13,979 bases of DNA from a virus (Duplodnaviria; Heunggongvirae; Uroviricota; Caudoviricetes). Below, piece after piece: positions 1,448-7,749 of the stretch. The notes beneath the pieces are model-generated. The model saw nothing but the letters and a program-made list of their open reading frames with translations, was not told the DNA's origin and made no database searches. Location of the stretch: IMG/VR virus record IMGVR_UViG_2737471865_000007; one strand, written 5' to 3'. Numbering within the stretch: position 1 is the stretch's first letter; each line of letters opens with the position of its first letter. The position numbers and the translations under genes were made by a program.

Positions 1448-3568
1448 ATGGCAATGAAGGAAGTCGCCAAGCTAACAAACGTTATTTACTGGGACTCTGA
1501 TAAATCCTCCTGGCGAAAAGAAGTTAAACGGCTTGAGGATTATAAAAAATCCTGGAAGAAAGCTACCGACGATATAGCTAAAGCGGATTTTAAATCGAAT
1601 CAGGCTGTGCTCAGAACACAAAGAACACGCGCTAAGGTGGAAGAGCAGATTGCCAGAGCTCAGAGGAAACAACAGGAAGCACAGAAGAAACAACGTGCTC
1701 AGGCTGTCAGCCGTCTGACCGGGGGCAATAATCCGGAGCTCTCCTCTATGCGCAAGTTCTATCAGCAGCAAGCCAGAGAGGCCGCCAGACAACAAAAACT
1801 GTTAGATCGTAGTGTTGGAGATGTTCAGCACAGAAAAGCACGTGTAGGGGCCAACAGTGCACGAATCAGCAGCATGTTTGATGGCTCCCTGGTTGCTCAG
1901 TTCCAAAGCAGAATCCAGAGAGTTAATGCTGATTATGCTAAAGGGGCTATTAACCTGCAGACCTATAATCAGAAAATGGCTCGGCTCAGGGCTGAAATGA
2001 AGATGGCAACAGCTGAAGCCGGAAAATTCCAGAGCAGACTGGACAGAGTGAATGGCAACCTGGGGAAACTGAATTCCACACTAGGCAAGATAGCCATTGG
2101 CCTGACTGCCGCTGGCTGGGGTGTTCAGCGTGCTGTTAGTAGTGCTATGAGTGCTCAATCTGACCATAACTCAGCCTATTATGGTTTGCTTGCTCAGAAC
2201 AAGGATGATAAAGCCAAGACTGACCAGCAGATGGCTTTTATCGAGAACACAGCCAACACCTACGGTATGGATCAGCGTGAGATGGAGGGTGGCTATATGC
2301 GTTTTGCTGCCGCTACTCCCACCATGAAGGAATCTGATAAGCAGGCTCTCTTTGAGGCTATGGCTATTAAAGGCCGCTCAGTGGGTGCTACTGGCGAGCA
2401 ACAGAACAGGGCGCTTGTCGCTATTCAGCAAATGGCTGGAAAAAATCGCGTGATGGCAGAAGAGCTGCGGGGCCAGCTGTCAGAAGCCTTTGCAGGCTCT
2501 CAGCAGGACTTCCAACAGGCCGCTATTGATGCCGGAATCATCAAGAATGCCCAGGAATTCGATAAGGCCATGAAAGATGGCAAAATCACCCTGGACAAGC
2601 TACTTCCTTCTTTGGTGAAAATCTGGGGTGCTGCAAAAGAAACTGACGCTTTTGCGAAATCTATGCAACAGCCGGAAGTGGCATTGCAAAGAATGAGCAA
2701 CCAGTTTTTTAAACTAAAACAATCCTTTATGGGTGTTGTGGATCCTGCGGATGGCGTCATTACCCTGTCAGAATCCCTTATTTATATCTTTGAAGATTTA
2801 TCCTCAATTTTCAGTAGCTCAGGTGAAGATGCCAAATCTCTCGGAGTTATGTTAGGCGAGGCAATGCATGAAATTTATTTTTGGGTTAACTGGGCTTGGT
2901 GGTGGACTAAGAAGATCGCTAAAGGCATTGGTGAGACGTTAGGCTGGACCGCACAGGATGCAGGCGAGAAGATTGGCCAGGTTGTGACCGCCCTGTTAGG
3001 CCTGAAGGTTGCAACAAGCATTGCTGGCATGGTTGGCGGCCTTATTTCCATGCTGTGGAAACTTAAAGCGGCGCTTAGTGCTTTAGTCGGTGTTGGTGAT
3101 ATCAGCACTGGAGGCACAGCAGGTAAAGGCAGACCAGGTAGAGGCGGCTTTATCGGGAAAGCAGGCAGACTTGGAGGAAGATTTGCAGGTCCGGCAGGGA
3201 TTGTTTTGACAGGATTTGACATTGCAAATAGCTTAGATTCCTACTGGCAGAATCCTGATAATCAGCGGCAGGAAGGAGCTAAACATCCTGAATGGTTAAC
3301 CAGTATGGTTAATAGTGCTTCCAGCTTCCTCGGACTTGATTATCGTCTCGATGCAGGACGCTACATTACCAGACCAACACCAACGGGTGGTATTGCTATT
3401 CAGAATGGAGGCTATCAGCCGACTCAAATCAGTGTAGTTCCGCAGGGTGAGATTTCCGGCAAATGGGAGATAACTATTGATGAGGGGGGAATTGCCAGGG
3501 TGATTCAGAAGGAAGTCAGCGATCAGTTGGATTGGAAAGCCACACAGGAATCTAACCAGCTTTTCTAA
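1448..3568 (+). CDS. Phage tail tape-measure-domain protein (706 aa)
   Basis: N-terminal K/R/Q/E-rich coiled-coil region, central segment matching the tape-measure domain signature as I recall it (NRALVAIQQMAGKNRVMAEELRGQLSEAF), C-terminal glycine-rich hydrophobic segments; GAGG 6 nt upstream of ATG. Confidence 0.75.
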   Translation: MAMKEVAKLTNVIYWDSDKSSWRKEVKRLEDYKKSWKKATDDIAKADFKSNQAVLRTQRTRAKVEEQIARAQRKQQEAQKKQRAQAVSRLTGGNNPELSSMRKFYQQQAREAARQQKLLDRSVGDVQHRKARVGANSARISSMFDGSLVAQFQSRIQRVNADYAKGAINLQTYNQKMARLRAEMKMATAEAGKFQSRLDRVNGNLGKLNSTLGKIAIGLTAAGWGVQRAVSSAMSAQSDHNSAYYGLLAQNKDDKAKTDQQMAFIENTANTYGMDQREMEGGYMRFAAATPTMKESDKQALFEAMAIKGRSVGATGEQQNRALVAIQQMAGKNRVMAEELRGQLSEAFAGSQQDFQQAAIDAGIIKNAQEFDKAMKDGKITLDKLLPSLVKIWGAAKETDAFAKSMQQPEVALQRMSNQFFKLKQSFMGVVDPADGVITLSESLIYIFEDLSSIFSSSGEDAKSLGVMLGEAMHEIYFWVNWAWWWTKKIAKGIGETLGWTAQDAGEKIGQVVTALLGLKVATSIAGMVGGLISMLWKLKAALSALVGVGDISTGGTAGKGRPGRGGFIGKAGRLGGRFAGPAGIVLTGFDIANSLDSYWQNPDNQRQEGAKHPEWLTSMVNSASSFLGLDYRLDAGRYITRPTPTGGIAIQNGGYQPTQISVVPQGEISGKWEITIDEGGIARVIQKEVSDQLDWKATQESNQLF

Positions 3569-3675
3569 TGTCCACTCTGTGGATTTGAGTTCTACTCAAA
3601 CCTGCATAGCAGGCACTGATATTGTGATCAAAATCAATAAGTTAGCCTGACCGGATAAACTCCAGGCAAGAAAAA

Positions 3676-3701
3676 AGCCCCTAAGTGTTAACAAAGGGGC
3701 T
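3676..3701 (-). terminator. Intrinsic terminator for the leftward (minus-strand) operon
   Basis: 7-bp stem AGCCCCT/AGGGGCT (3676-3682 / 3695-3701) with 12-nt loop; on the minus strand the stem is followed by UUUUUCUU (plus 3675-3668). On the plus strand the downstream tract is not U-rich. Confidence 0.5.
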
Positions 3702-3731
3702 CTTCTCCGGTATCCTTTTGATGCGGGGCAA

Positions 3732-3779
3732 AACCTGCTAACAAAAATCAACCTCTCGCGAGACTAATGTTAGCAGGTT
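3732..3779. repeat. 12-bp perfect inverted repeat (AACCTGCTAACA / TGTTAGCAGGTT) flanking a 24-bp spacer that contains the palindrome TCTCGCGAGA
   Basis: Read directly from sequence; spacer carries a variant (TCAACCTCTCGCGAG) of the 15-nt motif found upstream of two genes at 8049 and 8568. Confidence 0.6.
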
Positions 3780-4120
3780 GCCGGAAGGTAAGTCAACTCC
3801 GGCCTATAAACCTTAAAGCGACTATAAAATCGCCCCGCCAATTGTGATGATCCGACCTTTGAGGCGGGTCCGGTGCCCAGGGGGTGCAGTGATGCACAAA
3901 CCAGGCAACGATAAACAGGCTAACAGTGATAGCGGCGCTCAATCAGCGCACTAAATCCTAACCAGTCCGGGAAAGAGGCTGGCTCTATCGACCGCTCATG
4001 CACGGGACAATGCATACCTGATAAAGGATTCTCACAAGGGACCAATCGCGAGAAAAGAAGTGGAAAGGGGCTGATTTGTGGTGTATCACTACGGCCTCAA
4101 AAGAACACTATTACCTTTTT

Positions 4121-4573
4121 TCAGCCTCTACCTACATTTGACCAATACTTGATTGCACCGATCAAATCATCATAGTGGCGCATTGCATCATTGAAGCCTT
4201 TATAGCTTGCCCATTGTGGTGAAACCTTGTTATTGCTGAATTGCCCACTAATCAGGATAGTCTCCAAAATGTCGGCATATCGCTTGCCAATTCGCTTTCT
4301 GACGGCCTCAGAGCTTCCACCCTTTACGATTGCATTAATCAGGGCTTTTGTGTGTCTCAGGCTCTCATAGAGCATTGCAGCGTGGGCAGATTCCATAAAG
4401 GAGCGCTTAGGCAAATCACCCCACCCCTCAGAGTGGATAGCCGCCAGTGTGGCGTAATTCAGGCCGCTATAGTGCTTTCCGTCATCCCAGCCAACCGCTA
4501 CACCTTCCATCTGTGAGAGCTCTTTATGCAGCTTATCCATCATGCGCTTGTCTATGGTGCAACGGACTTTCAT
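4121..4573 (-). CDS. Hypothetical protein (150 aa)
   Basis: ATG overlaps stop of upstream gene (ATGA overlap at 4573-4570), implying translational coupling; no assignable motif. Confidence 0.55.
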   Translation of the reverse strand: MKVRCTIDKRMMDKLHKELSQMEGVAVGWDDGKHYSGLNYATLAAIHSEGWGDLPKRSFMESAHAAMLYESLRHTKALINAIVKGGSSEAVRKRIGKRYADILETILISGQFSNNKVSPQWASYKGFNDAMRHYDDLIGAIKYWSNVGRG

Positions 4574-5346
4574 TTTGTAGCATCCTTGGCAAATTTGGCT
4601 TGCCTTTGCTGATCATAAATGTCTTTTGTGCTCATAGCCCCATCATTTTCATCGAGCAAAGTTTGTAAATTTTTAGGCTTAGCCGATGGGGTGTTGGTTG
4701 AGTTCCCGACGTTGCTATTCTTCTCAGCACTGTTAACAGCACCCTTTTGCTGTGTTTTGTTCACCTTCTTACTGTTAGTGAAAACTCCGGCATTTTCGAC
4801 CATCTTCACCTTGAAGGTGCGGAATTCTTCAAAAGTGCAATCAATAGTGATGCAGTCACCAGAGGAAGAGCTACGCTTAACTTCACATTTCGTCATGATG
4901 AAGTTCTCAAGAAGTCCGGCATCTTCACTAACCAGGCTAACCAGCTGGCGCTTGTCTCTCATTTCCATAAGAGCACGCACAGCGGCGGCAGGGCGCATTG
5001 ATTCAAGGGGATTATCTGGATCAGTGTTCCGGTCGATGTAGTTCTCTTTCCGGATGATATGAGGGGAAGAGGTAATAATCCCTGTAAAGCTGACAGATTT
5101 ATCTTTAATGACGGCATGGTCTGACATGGTGGTGCCATCCTCGACCGCATAGCTCGATTTCTCGACAGGGAACGAATAGCTGACATCAGAGATTGAGTCA
5201 AAGAAGATAGCCACGTTATCGGTATAGTTGAAGCCATCCATTATATTTTTGTTTTGTGAATATCCCCCACACATAACAGTGAATGCAGGAGATCTCGACT
5301 CAGCTTGTTTTGCAGCTGTCAGAGCATCACTAGCCATATTAAACAT
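4570..5346 (-). CDS. Hypothetical protein (about 259 aa; start ambiguous between 5364 GTG, 5346 ATG and 5337 ATG)
   Basis: ORF in six-frame track; GGAGG (complement of 5348-5352) lies upstream of the ATG at 5337; low-complexity K/N/S/T-rich C-terminus. Confidence 0.5.
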   Translation of the reverse strand: MFNMASDALTAAKQAESRSPAFTVMCGGYSQNKNIMDGFNYTDNVAIFFDSISDVSYSFPVEKSSYAVEDGTTMSDHAVIKDKSVSFTGIITSSPHIIRKENYIDRNTDPDNPLESMRPAAAVRALMEMRDKRQLVSLVSEDAGLLENFIMTKCEVKRSSSSGDCITIDCTFEEFRTFKVKMVENAGVFTNSKKVNKTQQKGAVNSAEKNSNVGNSTNTPSAKPKNLQTLLDENDGAMSTKDIYDQQRQAKFAKDATK

Positions 5347-5496
5347 GCCTCCAAATTGGTCCACTTCATGGATTTGGCTAAAGCCAAACCTGCAAAAGAT
5401 GCAGGCAAAATAGAACTTATCGTTGCCCTGCTTAAAATCTGCAGAAAATACAGGGCAGTTATTCGTTAGAATCGCTTATAGCTCTTCCCGAGAGCG

Positions 5497-5748
5497 TTAT
5501 TTTGCAAAACGATTATGGGCATTCAGGGCTTTTTTGCGGTCCTGGGCTTGTTTGCGTGCAATAAAATGTTCGAAAGTCTCGGCCCAGGTGCATTTATTAT
5601 ATTCACGGTATTTATGCATAGCCTGGCGGCTAACGTCATAGCAGGCGGCAAATGTGGAGATACGCAGGAATTCCGGCAGATCCTCGTCATCGATATGGAT
5701 AATATCAAAAGGCACGTCATCACGGTCGCCGTATAAAACAATTTTCAT
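5497..5748 (-). CDS. Small protein (83 aa) with HTH-like segment (possible DNA-binding regulator)
   Basis: ATG at 5748-5746 preceded by GAGGTG (complement of 5755-5760) with 6-nt spacer; segment AACYDVSRQAMHKYREY is HTH-like. The six-frame track extends the ORF to a GTG at 5757. Confidence 0.5.
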   Translation of the reverse strand: MKIVLYGDRDDVPFDIIHIDDEDLPEFLRISTFAACYDVSRQAMHKYREYNKCTWAETFEHFIARKQAQDRKKALNAHNRFAK

Positions 5749-5777
5749 AAAAGACACCTCAAAAACTTAAGACGGGG

Positions 5778-5806
5778 ATTATGAGTCCTTCCAGGACCTT
5801 AGCTAA
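5778..5806 (-). promoter_or_regulatory. Candidate weak promoter for the three-gene cassette 5748-4121
   Basis: Minus-strand CATAAT (complement of 5778-5783) with a poor -35 (TTAGCT) at 17-nt spacing, between the capsid terminator and the 83-aa gene. Confidence 0.25.
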
Positions 5807-5834
5807 AGCTAAGCCCTTTGGGTCTGTGGATAAC

Positions 5835-5890
5835 AAAAAAGGGAAGAGGGAAAGACCTATCCCCGATCTCTCACCTCTTCCCTTTGCTTT
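5835..5890 (-). terminator. Intrinsic terminator immediately after the major capsid gene (hairpin could act in both directions)
   Basis: 9-bp stem GGGAAGAGG/CCTCTTCCC (5841-5849 / 5874-5882) with 24-nt loop; on the minus strand it is followed by UUUUUU (plus 5840-5835); on the plus strand by TTTGCTTTT. Confidence 0.6.
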
Positions 5891-6921
5891 TATTTAGCCT
5901 TGGCAGCGGCGGCGGTGTTTTTAACACTCACTTTAACCACAACTTCAGGCATCATGTTCATGAAAGCATAAGAGGATTCAACGAAGATTTCGCGTTTGCC
6001 TCTGGACTCTTCCATATACATGAAAGCTTCACGTGCAGCGCCGTTTGCCAGCTTCAGGTTGCGAGCGCAAGGGCCGAAAAATTGAGTATAAACGCCCACC
6101 ATATCGCCTAACGCATGCGGCTGGAACTGTGGGACTAGATAAGCAGTATTCTCTGGCAGACTATCCATTTGCACCACACGCAGAGCTAAGCCCGGAATGC
6201 GGAAGGTCGGGAAGCCCGGCAGAATATCCTCGGGGAACATCAGACCTTTGTCGGTAATATTCTGATTGCCGAACAACAGCACTTTTCTCAACAGTTCATC
6301 AGTCTGAATTGCAGCAAAGAGTTCAGCACGGCAGAACAGGGTGAAACCACGCAGAGCGCGAACAACACCACGCTGTTTAACCTTGCTCAGTGCAACCAGG
6401 TCCTGCAGCTGTTTAAGGATATCTTTAGCTAAATCCACTTCGGAAGTAGTTTGTTGTGCGCCCAGCAGTTCGCACACATTCAGTTCTTTACCCTTGGTGA
6501 GGATAATTTTGTTCTCAAAGAGAGCAAGCTGGCGTGCTTCTTCGTGGGTCTGGCGTAAGCCTTCGCCCAGTTGAATAACACGACGAGCGGTTACAGACTC
6601 TAAATTCTCTTCGGAATCTTTGCCAGGAACACGAATACCCTGCCAGTCAGAAGGATAAATAGCACTTGATGCGGCAGTGAACGCCATATCACCCGTGCCC
6701 GTTTCACGCTCATCTGCGGTAATGGTCGCCATCTGTTCACCGTAGCGCGGATACTGACCGAAAGCGGTTTGTTTCACCTGGCGAACTTTGTCATATTCAA
6801 ATTTAAAGGTATTGCACAGAGCAGTAGTGTTGAAGATATCCATTGCTGAAATAATCTGGTTATCCAGCGGGATGTCTTTAATCAAGCCACACAGATCGCG
6901 GACTTCGAATTCTTTTTTCAT
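5890..6921 (-). CDS. Major capsid protein, lambda gpE-like family
   Basis: Segment ARRVIQLGEGLRQTHEEARQLALFENKIILTKGKE parallels the lambda E region RRRIIMQNMRDEELAIAQVEEMQAVSAVLKGK; length about 343 aa matches the family; ATG at 6921 preceded by AAGGAGG (complement of 6928-6934) with 6-nt spacer. The track's TTG start at 6927 is less likely. Confidence 0.8.
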   Translation of the reverse strand: MKKEFEVRDLCGLIKDIPLDNQIISAMDIFNTTALCNTFKFEYDKVRQVKQTAFGQYPRYGEQMATITADERETGTGDMAFTAASSAIYPSDWQGIRVPGKDSEENLESVTARRVIQLGEGLRQTHEEARQLALFENKIILTKGKELNVCELLGAQQTTSEVDLAKDILKQLQDLVALSKVKQRGVVRALRGFTLFCRAELFAAIQTDELLRKVLLFGNQNITDKGLMFPEDILPGFPTFRIPGLALRVVQMDSLPENTAYLVPQFQPHALGDMVGVYTQFFGPCARNLKLANGAAREAFMYMEESRGKREIFVESSYAFMNMMPEVVVKVSVKNTAAAAKAK

Positions 6922-6932
6922 CTCCAACCTCC

Positions 6933-7268
6933 TTATTGTGCAATTCGCAAATCGCCATTGCTGGCAGCGATAACAGCGGCTAAGCCTTCTTTATCCACGT
7001 AGGCCGGATTGATGTAGCAACCTTTGTTGGCAACAACGATAAAAGCATCACCAACCTCAGCACGTTCTACAACCAGCAGCGGAGTTTTATCTGTGTGCGT
7101 TGCTTTAACGAAGGTCTCAACCTCGCCAGCCTCAGTCACCACAACAACAGTGCCAGCCGGAATCTCAGCCTTAACTTTGTTTTTAACTTCAACGTCGCGA
7201 ATACTAAATTGCTCATCTGCGGCGTATGAAATGATGTGTCCGCGTGTGCGGATAGTCATATCTCTCAT
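6933..7268 (-). CDS. Head decoration-like small capsid protein (111 aa)
   Basis: About 110-aa ORF immediately upstream of and coupled to the E-like capsid gene, which is the canonical position of a decoration/D-like protein; AGGTGA upstream of the ATG. Assignment is positional and by size, not by strong motif. Confidence 0.55.
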   Translation of the reverse strand: MRDMTIRTRGHIISYAADEQFSIRDVEVKNKVKAEIPAGTVVVVTEAGEVETFVKATHTDKTPLLVVERAEVGDAFIVVANKGCYINPAYVDKEGLAAVIAASNGDLRIAQ

Positions 7269-7749
7269 TTGATCACCTGCGATTTAAATTAACTCCCCTC
7301 AAAGGGCTCAGGTATAACCTCTCAAACCACGACAGGCTCGGGCCGAAAAGTTATGCCGGAAATCTAAAGGGGGATTGATATAAGGAGAGGGAGATAGCCC
7401 CGCACCGTCCAAGCGGGGGCTATTCCACATGGGGAAACCGACAACAGTCGGATGATAGTTCACAGTATGGTTACGGTTACTAGAGAGCACTATCACGAAA
7501 GGCACTCCCCCGAATCAGTTCAGGCTGCGGTCACATCAGCGGGGAAATACCTTTCGGGATAGCTACCCACACAGAAAACCCGCAAAAGAAAACTGTGTGG
7601 ATAACTAGCCCTGTAGGGAGAATAAGGAGAATTAATCGACCACTCAACGATGATCAGGGTAGTGTTATTTATAAGGCGGCACCGCTACCTGGTCGCCTTT
7701 ACTTTGGAGGAAAATACGGCAAATCACCTTCGCTAAATGATTCACGGTA

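Follow-up and report, generated by a model that had tools for sequence, protein, structure and literature searches.

What do three genes of unassigned function do directly behind the capsid gene of a small DNA catalogued as a tailed virus? The DNA is the IMG/VR record IMGVR_UViG_2737471865_000007 (Caudoviricetes), analysed here over its full 13,979 nt and referred to as the window, and the locus is a cassette at positions 4121–5806. The initial annotation had described there an 83-amino-acid (aa) helix-turn-helix (HTH)-like protein, a protein of about 259 aa and a 150-aa protein (hereafter genes 1, 2 and 3), insulated between the terminator of the capsid gene and a convergent terminator, and had proposed either head-completion proteins or an accessory cargo such as a defence, anti-defence or helper-interference system. 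The three co-oriented open reading frames (ORFs) of the minus strand were found as described. Their assignment changed: genes 2 and 3 are by homology a tail tube initiator and a neck-module protein of the kind found in rV5-type phages. The window itself is a complete circular Escherichia coli plasmid, and we consider it probable that this plasmid is a satellite of rV5-type virulent myophages and that the cassette is its tail-core module.

Genes 2 and 3 are homologues of Vequintavirinae structural proteins

The product of gene 2 matched the Pfam family Dit_like (PF21821) over profile positions 1–125 of 127 (87.6 bits, cut-off 24.2, E = 9.5e-25) and phrog_5197 with an E-value of 1.5e-100, and it is 45% identical to the annotated 'tail tube initiator protein' of rV5-type E. 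coli phages. Among solved structures, residues 19–223 aligned with residues 35–237 of the tube initiator of phage phiTE (PDB 9CUY_K/9MJN, 2.3e-34), and further PDB matches were obtained to phi92 gp135 (6e-9) and 9ndy_A gp018 (6e-4). By these homologies gene 2 is assigned as a tail tube initiator. In phiTE this protein forms a six-fold ring on the hub; its core is that of a tube protein, and its long arms at the N- and C-termini touch the hub, wedge, sheath initiator and sheath (PMC11972413).

The likeness of gene 2 to the Vequintavirinae initiators (that of phiTE, rV5 gp48 and phi92 gp135) covers the whole tube-fold core and the QQKGAVN...SNVGN stretch of the C-terminal arm. What had been described as a low-complexity tail is thus in part phage-like sequence, since KKVxKTQQKGAVN...SNVGN is shared with the phage homologue. 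There are four differences. Gene 2 is plasmid-encoded, whereas the Vequintavirinae initiators lie in the phage genome; it stands away from hub genes and convergent to the tape measure gene, whereas the phage gene directly follows the tape measure gene; its product has 255–264 aa against 284–294 aa; and within its family the tube-fold core is conserved while the N- and C-terminal arms, which are the contact parts in phiTE, vary. The longest ORF of the gene encodes 264 aa. Its start is likely ATG 5337 (5337..4570, 255 aa), a codon preceded by GGAGG at a distance of 10 nt and matching the aligned N-termini of relatives.

Gene 3 was confirmed as a 150-aa ORF whose ATG overlaps the stop codon of gene 2 (ATGA). 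It matched phrog_222 ('tail completion or Neck1 protein', 1.1e-28) and is 44% identical over its full length to bas57_0011 of phage MaxTheCat, which itself matches phrog_222 at 2.4e-41 and corresponds to rV5 gp056, a protein with the same RefSeq name. Homologues were present in 364 phage records, of Vequintavirinae and of Pakpunavirus-like Pseudomonas phages. One of them, gp14 of Pectobacterium phage CB7, is 49% identical to gene 3 and carries the record annotation 'structural protein, MS/MS confirmed' (tandem mass spectrometry). In CB7 and phiTE the gene of this family is flanked by those for the adaptor (CB7_13, PDB 9CC7_D) and for head completion (CB7_15, PDB 9CC7_E); no chain of the phiTE or phi92 virion models belongs to it. 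Searches of BFVD with gene 3 gave unnamed phage proteins down to an E-value of 3e-8 and two 'virion morphogenesis proteins' at about 5e-3.

Compared with rV5 gp56, phiTE gp219 and CB7 gp14 (PHROG 222), gene 3 aligns end to end at 44–49% identity with a common length of 150–155 aa, and it keeps the invariant HxSGLNxATLAAIH..GW..LP.R.FM motif. It differs in place: the plasmid gene follows the tube initiator gene and is translationally coupled to it, whereas the phage gene stands between those for the adaptor and the head-completion protein. Gene 3 is accordingly classed, by sequence comparison, as a member of the rV5 gp56 family and a neck-module virion or morphogenesis protein, and not as a proven tail terminator; no fold shared with solved tail-completion, terminator or neck proteins was found for it. 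Sequence searches of the PDB, for which the gene 3 protein, its homologues from rV5 and CB7 and a profile of 31 sequences served as queries, returned armadillo-repeat matches only, which we judged spurious.

Two of the three genes once listed as unknown are then, as far as homology tells, ordinary structural homologues, and both are new members of known phage protein families. The guess of head-completion proteins came closer to this in predicting a structural nature, and erred in the part of the virion, tail and neck being concerned instead. The ratio of non-synonymous to synonymous substitution rates (dN/dS), calculated over 11 members of the plasmid family, was 0.17, 0.11 and 0.06 for genes 1, 2 and 3, respectively, which shows that all three are functional coding genes under purifying selection.

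Gene 1 encodes a family-specific protein with a predicted HTH-like domain

No match to gene 1 was obtained in Pfam, PHROG, NCBIfam or PADLOC. Its AlphaFold2 model (predicted local distance difference test score 82) contains an acidic beta-hairpin (residues 3–23) and three helices (residues 24–38, 44–54 and 58–85), with two short helices in classic HTH spacing (ISTFAACYDVSRQAMHKYRE) and a long basic C-terminal helix; the isoelectric points of the segments are 4.1, 8.0 and 11.1. A Foldseek search of the PDB with this model gave nothing with E below 1, the top matches being homeodomains with E of at least 1.1. The HTH-like label given previously is therefore plausible from the three-helix model, but it finds no curated HTH family and no significant structural match.

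In exhaustive searches, homologues of gene 1 were restricted to the plasmid family, as small proteins 72%, 49%, 32% and 32% identical, each encoded between the capsid gene and the Dit_like gene on contigs of 13–14 kb. Farther matches, obtained by hidden Markov model search, were repeated HTH modules in unrelated larger proteins with NUMOD-like or sigma domains. A scan of IMG/VR with gene 1 found no relatives, and profile–profile comparison with bas57_0009, the rV5-type protein encoded after the capsid gene, indicated no relation (probability 2.6%). A single Rhizobiales match among GTDB species-representative genomes lay inside larger GC-rich ORFs and was rejected as spurious. One of the 32%-identical homologues had sub-threshold Pfam matches to GP3_package, the P22-type small terminase (0.0018), and to HTH_17 (0.03); the former is a pointer to a small terminase, and we take it as a hint only.

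From the model, gene 1 probably encodes a conserved, family-specific DNA-binding protein with a three-helix HTH-like domain. As it would be co-expressed with the structural genes, packaging specificity or late regulation would be its most plausible roles. A narrower proposal is that it is a transcription regulator of the late operon (activator, repressor or anti-terminator) and no packaging factor at all. The three-helix model with its basic C-terminal helix and the distant matches to HTH modules of sigma-factor or NUMOD-type proteins speak for it. We nevertheless regard this proposal as somewhat unlikely, as a place after the capsid gene in the middle of a structural operon is typical of morphogenesis and packaging genes and not of early regulators, as the best Pfam match of the divergent homologue, although below threshold, is GP3_package, and as a separate HTH_7 regulator is already present on the plasmid (Table 1).

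In the phages, the position after the capsid terminator is annotated in two ways: as one 275-aa ORF in MaxTheCat (6902–7729) and as two ORFs of 74 and 193 aa in the rV5 RefSeq record (gp058, gp059). The two records may differ through annotation or sequencing, or the gene may contain a frameshift site.

The cassette is the distal half of a phage-type late operon

The operon reads 111-aa gene, capsid gene, leaky terminator, 83-aa gene, tube initiator gene and gp56-like gene, and the cassette forms its distal half. The terminator directly after the capsid gene is real: its folding energy was −32.6 kcal/mol (z = −4.8) and none of 200 shuffled sequences was as stable. Its role as an insulator was not borne out. 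A GC-rich hairpin followed by a T-run lies 3′ of the capsid gene in all five lineages of the plasmid family, and the rV5 record has an annotated terminator at the same place, directly 3′ of its capsid gene. Because of these two features and the short gaps in lineages L022 and L011, it is best read, from this comparative analysis, as a leaky, phage-style attenuator that would keep capsid protein in excess, as in phage late operons.

The weak −10 element (CATAAT) proposed as the cassette's own promoter is present in the sequence, but it remained below the threshold of the consensus scan and is not conserved. The distance between the terminator and gene 1 shrinks to about 28 nt in L022; a promoter of its own is therefore not a conserved feature of the cassette, and neither is the proposed separate transcription unit. 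Similarly, the small terminator-like hairpin between genes 1 and 2 is located in a region that folds no better than its shuffles (z = −1.66), and this gap measures just 27 nt in L011 and L022.

Downstream, a strong bidirectional hairpin was found as had been announced by the convergent terminator of the initial annotation, but it lies about 420 nt past gene 3 and does not abut the cassette. The region 3560–3700 folds at −43.2 kcal/mol (z = −4.46), and the GCCCCU...AGGGGC hairpin at its end follows A6 when read on the plus strand, so that U6 comes behind the hairpin on the minus strand. A terminator immediately 3′ of gene 3 was also considered and rejected, as 4020–4125 folds like shuffled sequence (z = −0.18).

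The window is a plasmid, and the cassette belongs to the core of its family

The 13979-to-1 junction of the window is contiguous in its relatives, and the 13,979 bp are a complete circular plasmid of E. coli. Relatives with 92–93% identity are likewise complete circular plasmids, of 13.2–13.7 kb, and occur in 7 of 5,426 complete E. coli genomes; their hosts are cattle, pig, chicken and human isolates from four continents, and they are typed non-mobilizable in PLSDB. No near-identical DNA was found in the phage collection, so the window is not a known phage. Five iterons and an O-like replication initiator together likely constitute the plasmid origin and Rep.

Structural genes recognised with Pfam and PHROG were limited to those for the capsid, the tape measure, the tube initiator and the gp56-like protein. 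The sequence leaves no space for genes of a portal, a large terminase or a sheath, the biggest unassigned ORFs being below 200 aa. The capsid gene is complete and strongly constrained (dN/dS 0.07), and its relatives match PF03864. No family match was given by Pfam and PHROG searches for the 111-aa protein.

Five lineages, with replicons or contigs of 13.2–14.3 kb, share one order: 111-aa gene, capsid gene, small gene, Dit_like gene, gp56-like gene. The convergent tape measure gene is present wherever the contig is long enough. Proteins of the divergent lineages fall to 30–50% identity; relative to the window, values range from 95 to 40% for the capsid protein, from 71 to 34% for gene 1, from 85 to 49% for the tube initiator and from 94 to 40% for the gp56-like protein, for which 33–50% was also obtained against the two distant lineages. 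No protein is better conserved among the three close E. coli lineages than the gp56-like one (91–100% identity versus 39–82% for the others). Neither frameshifts nor truncations were seen in the 12 members compared. As the five-gene order is kept in the five lineages and the variable slots of the plasmid lie elsewhere (8594–9181 and 11983–12501), the cassette is, from these alignments, a fixed core of the plasmid family and not variable cargo. Conservation of the cassette independently of the capsid genes was not observed: in no lineage found is it separate from the capsid gene.

The plasmid is linked to rV5-type phages

When every ORF of the plasmid was compared by tblastn with a complete rV5-type genome, four proteins matched: the tube initiator (45% identity), the gp56-like protein (44%), the tape measure (25%) and the capsid protein (24%). 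For all four, the best phage matches among 50,697 records were Vequintavirinae. The G+C content is also close, 43.8% for the plasmid and 43.6% for the phage, and the tape measures have 706 aa versus 778 aa.

A further link is a non-coding element of 52 bp at 7976–8027, with a weaker copy at 1257–1307, made up of three adjoining palindromes (CACCC-N3-GGGTG, GTGAC-N5-GTCAC and CTGGC-N3-GCCAG). It is 82–90% identical to an unannotated spot in 63 phage records, of Escherichia, Shigella and unclassified Vequintavirinae phages together with 12 deposited as Campylobacter phages. In rV5 the counterpart is located inside a 2.6-kb ORF-free stretch between convergent gene arms. Among the copies, stems are kept and loops vary. 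Distribution of the element within the plasmid family is patchy; it is for this reason read, from the alignments, as showing DNA exchange with rV5-type phages and not as a universal packaging site. Candidate roles for it are those of an operator, of an origin or pac-related site, or of a small-RNA element that phage and plasmid have exchanged.

A probable satellite-plasmid of rV5-type phages

A small self-replicating replicon with an incomplete virion gene set, specifically related to one helper lineage, the Vequintavirinae, by homologous proteins, by the 52-bp element and by G+C content, has the features of a phage satellite. We therefore favour, as the probable explanation, a satellite-plasmid of rV5-type virulent myophages with the cassette as its tail-core module. 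Helper interference, one of the roles considered originally, survives here in altered form: the whole replicon is satellite-like and its genes probably act on helper tail assembly, but not as a separate cargo.

In contractile tails, growth starts at a hub in which the C-terminus of the tape measure is held. The tube initiator ring on this hub primes polymerisation of the tube, which proceeds along the tape measure, and the top is completed by neck and terminator proteins. On this basis, infection by a helper would lead to high expression of the capsid gene, while read-through of the post-capsid terminator would yield less of the three cassette proteins. The plasmid would supply the tape measure with putative chaperones, the tube initiator and the neck-module protein, and the helper would supply the rest. 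The tube initiator would attach the highly divergent tape measure of the satellite itself to hubs made by the helper and the gp56-like protein would act at the neck end, so that the cassette would consist of cognate partners fitting the satellite tape measure into helper-made hubs, tubes and necks. The outcome would be tails or tail intermediates with satellite parts, at the expense of helper parts. In the weakest step of this scheme, the product of gene 1 would bind DNA and either mark plasmid DNA for the packaging motor of the helper or regulate the late operon.

The T=4 heads of P4 and the SaPIs hold about 11–15 kb. The presence of a capsid gene and the narrow 13–14 kb size of the replicons fit a small capsid; the plasmid is also about one tenth of the helper genome, and concatemers may be packaged in full-size heads. 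A bolder version, which we put forward as possible but doubtful, is that these plasmids rebuild both ends of the virion, with small heads from their own capsid protein for about one plasmid copy, a tail interior in which their own tape measure, tube initiator and gp56-like protein take the place of the helper's inner core, and an 83-aa protein that redirects helper packaging. If true, no other satellite would be known to substitute the inside of a contractile helper tail, and the plasmid would be the first satellite-plasmid outside Vibrio and Shewanella.

Several observations weigh against a satellite. No small terminase, Rpp-like protein or other known packaging factor was recognisable on the plasmid, and the 52-bp element is weakened as a universal pac site by its absence from several family members. 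Viral contigs of IMG/VR contained no relatives of the capsid protein, used as a query alone and as an alignment. The tape measure is only 72 residues off the helper length. The tube initiator and the gp56-like protein are about equally distant from all Vequintavirinae genera (44–49%); no specific helper can be named. Finally, induction, packaging and transfer of the plasmid by a helper are inferences.

Part of these observations would suit a defence by assembly poisoning, in which divergent structural copies co-assemble with those of the phage into dead-end tails or heads and protect the population with no transfer of the plasmid. The plasmid proteins are homologous enough (24–45%) to enter helper assemblies, blocking of tail assembly is a known defence strategy (Tab, PMC10884400; Tai, PMC11364771), no packaging gene is recognisable and the IMG/VR capsid scans gave no virome evidence. 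However, replicon size is held at 13.2–14.3 kb in all lineages, which fits a limit of capsid capacity better than a defence plasmid, and a complete, constrained capsid gene together with a full tape-measure operon exceeds the needs of a poison. We judge this alternative improbable; known satellites moreover combine interference with transfer, so that it partly overlaps the satellite explanation.

Two other explanations fare worse. That the plasmid is the decaying remnant of a small phage-plasmid or a prophage fragment, its structural genes being functionless relics, would account for the mere fraction of a virion gene set and for its rarity in complete E. coli genomes. It is very unlikely given purifying selection on all structural genes, the gene order and replicon size kept across five lineages at 30–50% protein identity, and the intact reading frames of the compared members. 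The insulated accessory cargo of the initial annotation, a novel kind of defence or anti-defence system led by an HTH regulator, hardly seems credible any more. Gene 1 does lack a known family, and a terminator and a weak promoter-like site precede the cassette, but genes 2 and 3 have confident structural homology, to a tail tube initiator and to rV5 gp56/PHROG 222, the very kind of match by which the cargo proposal was to be judged. Matches in PADLOC-DB were noise (E-values of 1e-3 or weaker, with genes 1 and 2 having no match at all), the promoter lacks conservation, and the cassette order is invariant, always linked to the capsid gene, with the variable slots lying elsewhere.

Other features of the window

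Coordinates are collected in Table 1.

Table 1. Features of the cassette and of the plasmid that carries it
Feature	Coordinates	Strand	Details
Gene 1	5748..5497	−	ATG start, 83 aa; GAGGTG (ribosome-binding site) 6 nt upstream
Gene 2 (tail tube initiator, by homology)	4570..5364	−	longest ORF from GTG 5364, 264 aa
Gene 3 (gp56-like)	4573..4121	−	150 aa; ATGA overlap, coupled to gene 2
Weak sigma-70-like promoter candidate	5778..5806	−	TTAGCT-17-CATAAT; CATAAT 5783–5778, TTAGCT 5806–5801
Intrinsic terminator directly after capsid gene	5833..5884	−	GC-rich hairpin 5884–5839 + U6
Small terminator-like hairpin, gap between genes 1 and 2	5388..5406	−	consensus scan; weak, not conserved
Bidirectional terminator hairpin	3677..3700	both	about 420 nt beyond gene 3, about 110 nt beyond tape measure gene
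Tape measure gene	1448..3568	+	706 aa; PF20155 1.9e-13; phrog_5255 1.1e-142; convergent with cassette
Major capsid gene	5890..6927	−	phrog_29 3.2e-21; same operon, upstream of cassette
111-aa protein gene	6933..7268	−	first in operon; kept in all lineages
HTH_7 regulator	8276–8536
Iterons (five, about 22 nt)	10528–10714		ACCTGTTGGAATTTCC core; probable plasmid origin
O-like replication initiator	12505–13419		phrog_270 8e-8; weak PF13730; probable Rep

Three small ORFs of the plus strand lie upstream of the tape measure gene. The tape measure itself is a mosaic: residues 1–450 and 651–700 are 66–98% identical between lineages, and residues ~451–650 form a hypervariable internal segment with 8–34% identity even among close relatives. 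The best-conserved DNA of the plasmid, 3388–4572, spans the C-terminus of the tape measure, a convergent non-coding stretch of 550 bp that contains several stable hairpins, and gene 3; it is 96–97% identical among close relatives and 87% in the divergent clade, most other DNA being 67–76% identical or unalignable. No Rfam match was found in this stretch, and within its non-coding part (3568–4120) the sequence of lineage L015 differs. In the whole window, tRNA and Rfam scans gave nothing at gathering score or with E up to 1, apart from a sub-threshold ctRNA match on the terminator hairpin.

The region 9181–11750, about 2.6 kb, is almost devoid of conserved ORFs except for the iteron region. It is reminiscent of the 2.6-kb ORF-free stretch of rV5-type phages, with which it shares no significant similarity apart from a 24-bp match (E = 0.11). 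The proteins of the two variable slots include one of 195 aa with a signal-peptide-like N-terminus and a MarR-like one of 172 aa, neither of which occurs in more than one or two relatives, other ORFs taking their place elsewhere in the family; it is in these slots that accessory or defence cargo, if the plasmid family has any, should be sought.

A 21-nt motif of the plus strand, AAATCAACTTCTCGCAAAGG, occurs in four copies, at 3745–3765, 7286–7306, 8046–8066 and 8565–8585. The copy at 8046 directly follows the 52-bp element and that at 8565 lies just upstream of the gene for the 195-aa protein. The motif could be a shared leader or ribosome-binding region, or a regulatory site.

Another record, NZ_CP043822.1 (plasmid of E. 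coli RM10740, 39,610 bp), gave three whole-window matches and corresponds to a trimer of a 13.2-kb unit. The trimer is either an assembly artefact or a real multimer; in the latter case it would bear on headful packaging.

Comparison with known systems

The family of probable E. coli satellite-plasmids tied to rV5-type phages is apparently undescribed, as full-text literature searches returned no paper on the plasmid family or on any satellite of rV5/Vequintavirus phages. Phages of the rV5 type (Vequintavirus) are widely used in cocktails for E. coli phage therapy and biocontrol. If a resident plasmid exploits or sabotages the assembly of their tails and heads, both the efficacy of the phage and the spread of the plasmid would be affected. 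Tail genes are almost unknown in satellites, and the element offers a handle on how a tape measure matches its initiator and neck partner, on the role of the rV5 gp56 family (annotated by mass spectrometry in CB7 and unseen in two whole-virion structures) and on how satellites of strictly virulent phages persist.

The PISP and cf-PISP satellite-plasmids were described from Vibrio and reported from no other genus (Nat Commun 2026, PMC13230959). By description they share with the E. coli plasmid a size of 11–16 kb, own replication functions and satellite-type capsid genes; the PISP carries a PF03864 capsid E protein, as do the relatives of the E. coli plasmid, and for both PISP and cf-PISP maintenance as a plasmid and transfer by helper phages have been proposed. 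Their gene content differs: PISP and cf-PISP are without tail genes and have a small terminase and a protease (and a portal in cf-PISP), whereas the E. coli family has genes for a tape measure, a tube initiator and a neck-module protein, with no recognisable terminase or protease.

The EPIP satellites of Mycolicibacterium encode tape measures and give altered tails (bioRxiv Dec 2025, PMC12822802). With their own tape measure and capsid protein they are an earlier example of satellites that influence how long tails become or how they are assembled, tape measures being otherwise absent from satellites according to the same preprint. Unlike the plasmid, however, they are integrative with a serine integrase, have a siphovirus helper and encode a small terminase and head–tail connectors, and no tube initiator is reported for them.

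With the defence systems Tab (PMC10884400) and Tai (PMC11364771) the plasmid may share an outcome, the disturbance of helper tail assembly by a resident element. Tab and Tai are nonetheless not tail structural homologues and show no sequence relation to the plasmid (PADLOC negative).

Lastly, own capsid genes are also found in the cf-PICIs and in MulchRoom and MiniFlayer (PMC10690885). The latter two parasitise virulent Streptomyces phages and match the G+C content of their helper, as the plasmid does. Unlike the plasmid, which combines one capsid gene with a tail-core set, cf-PICIs, MulchRoom and MiniFlayer carry all genes for heads and packaging but none for the tail core.

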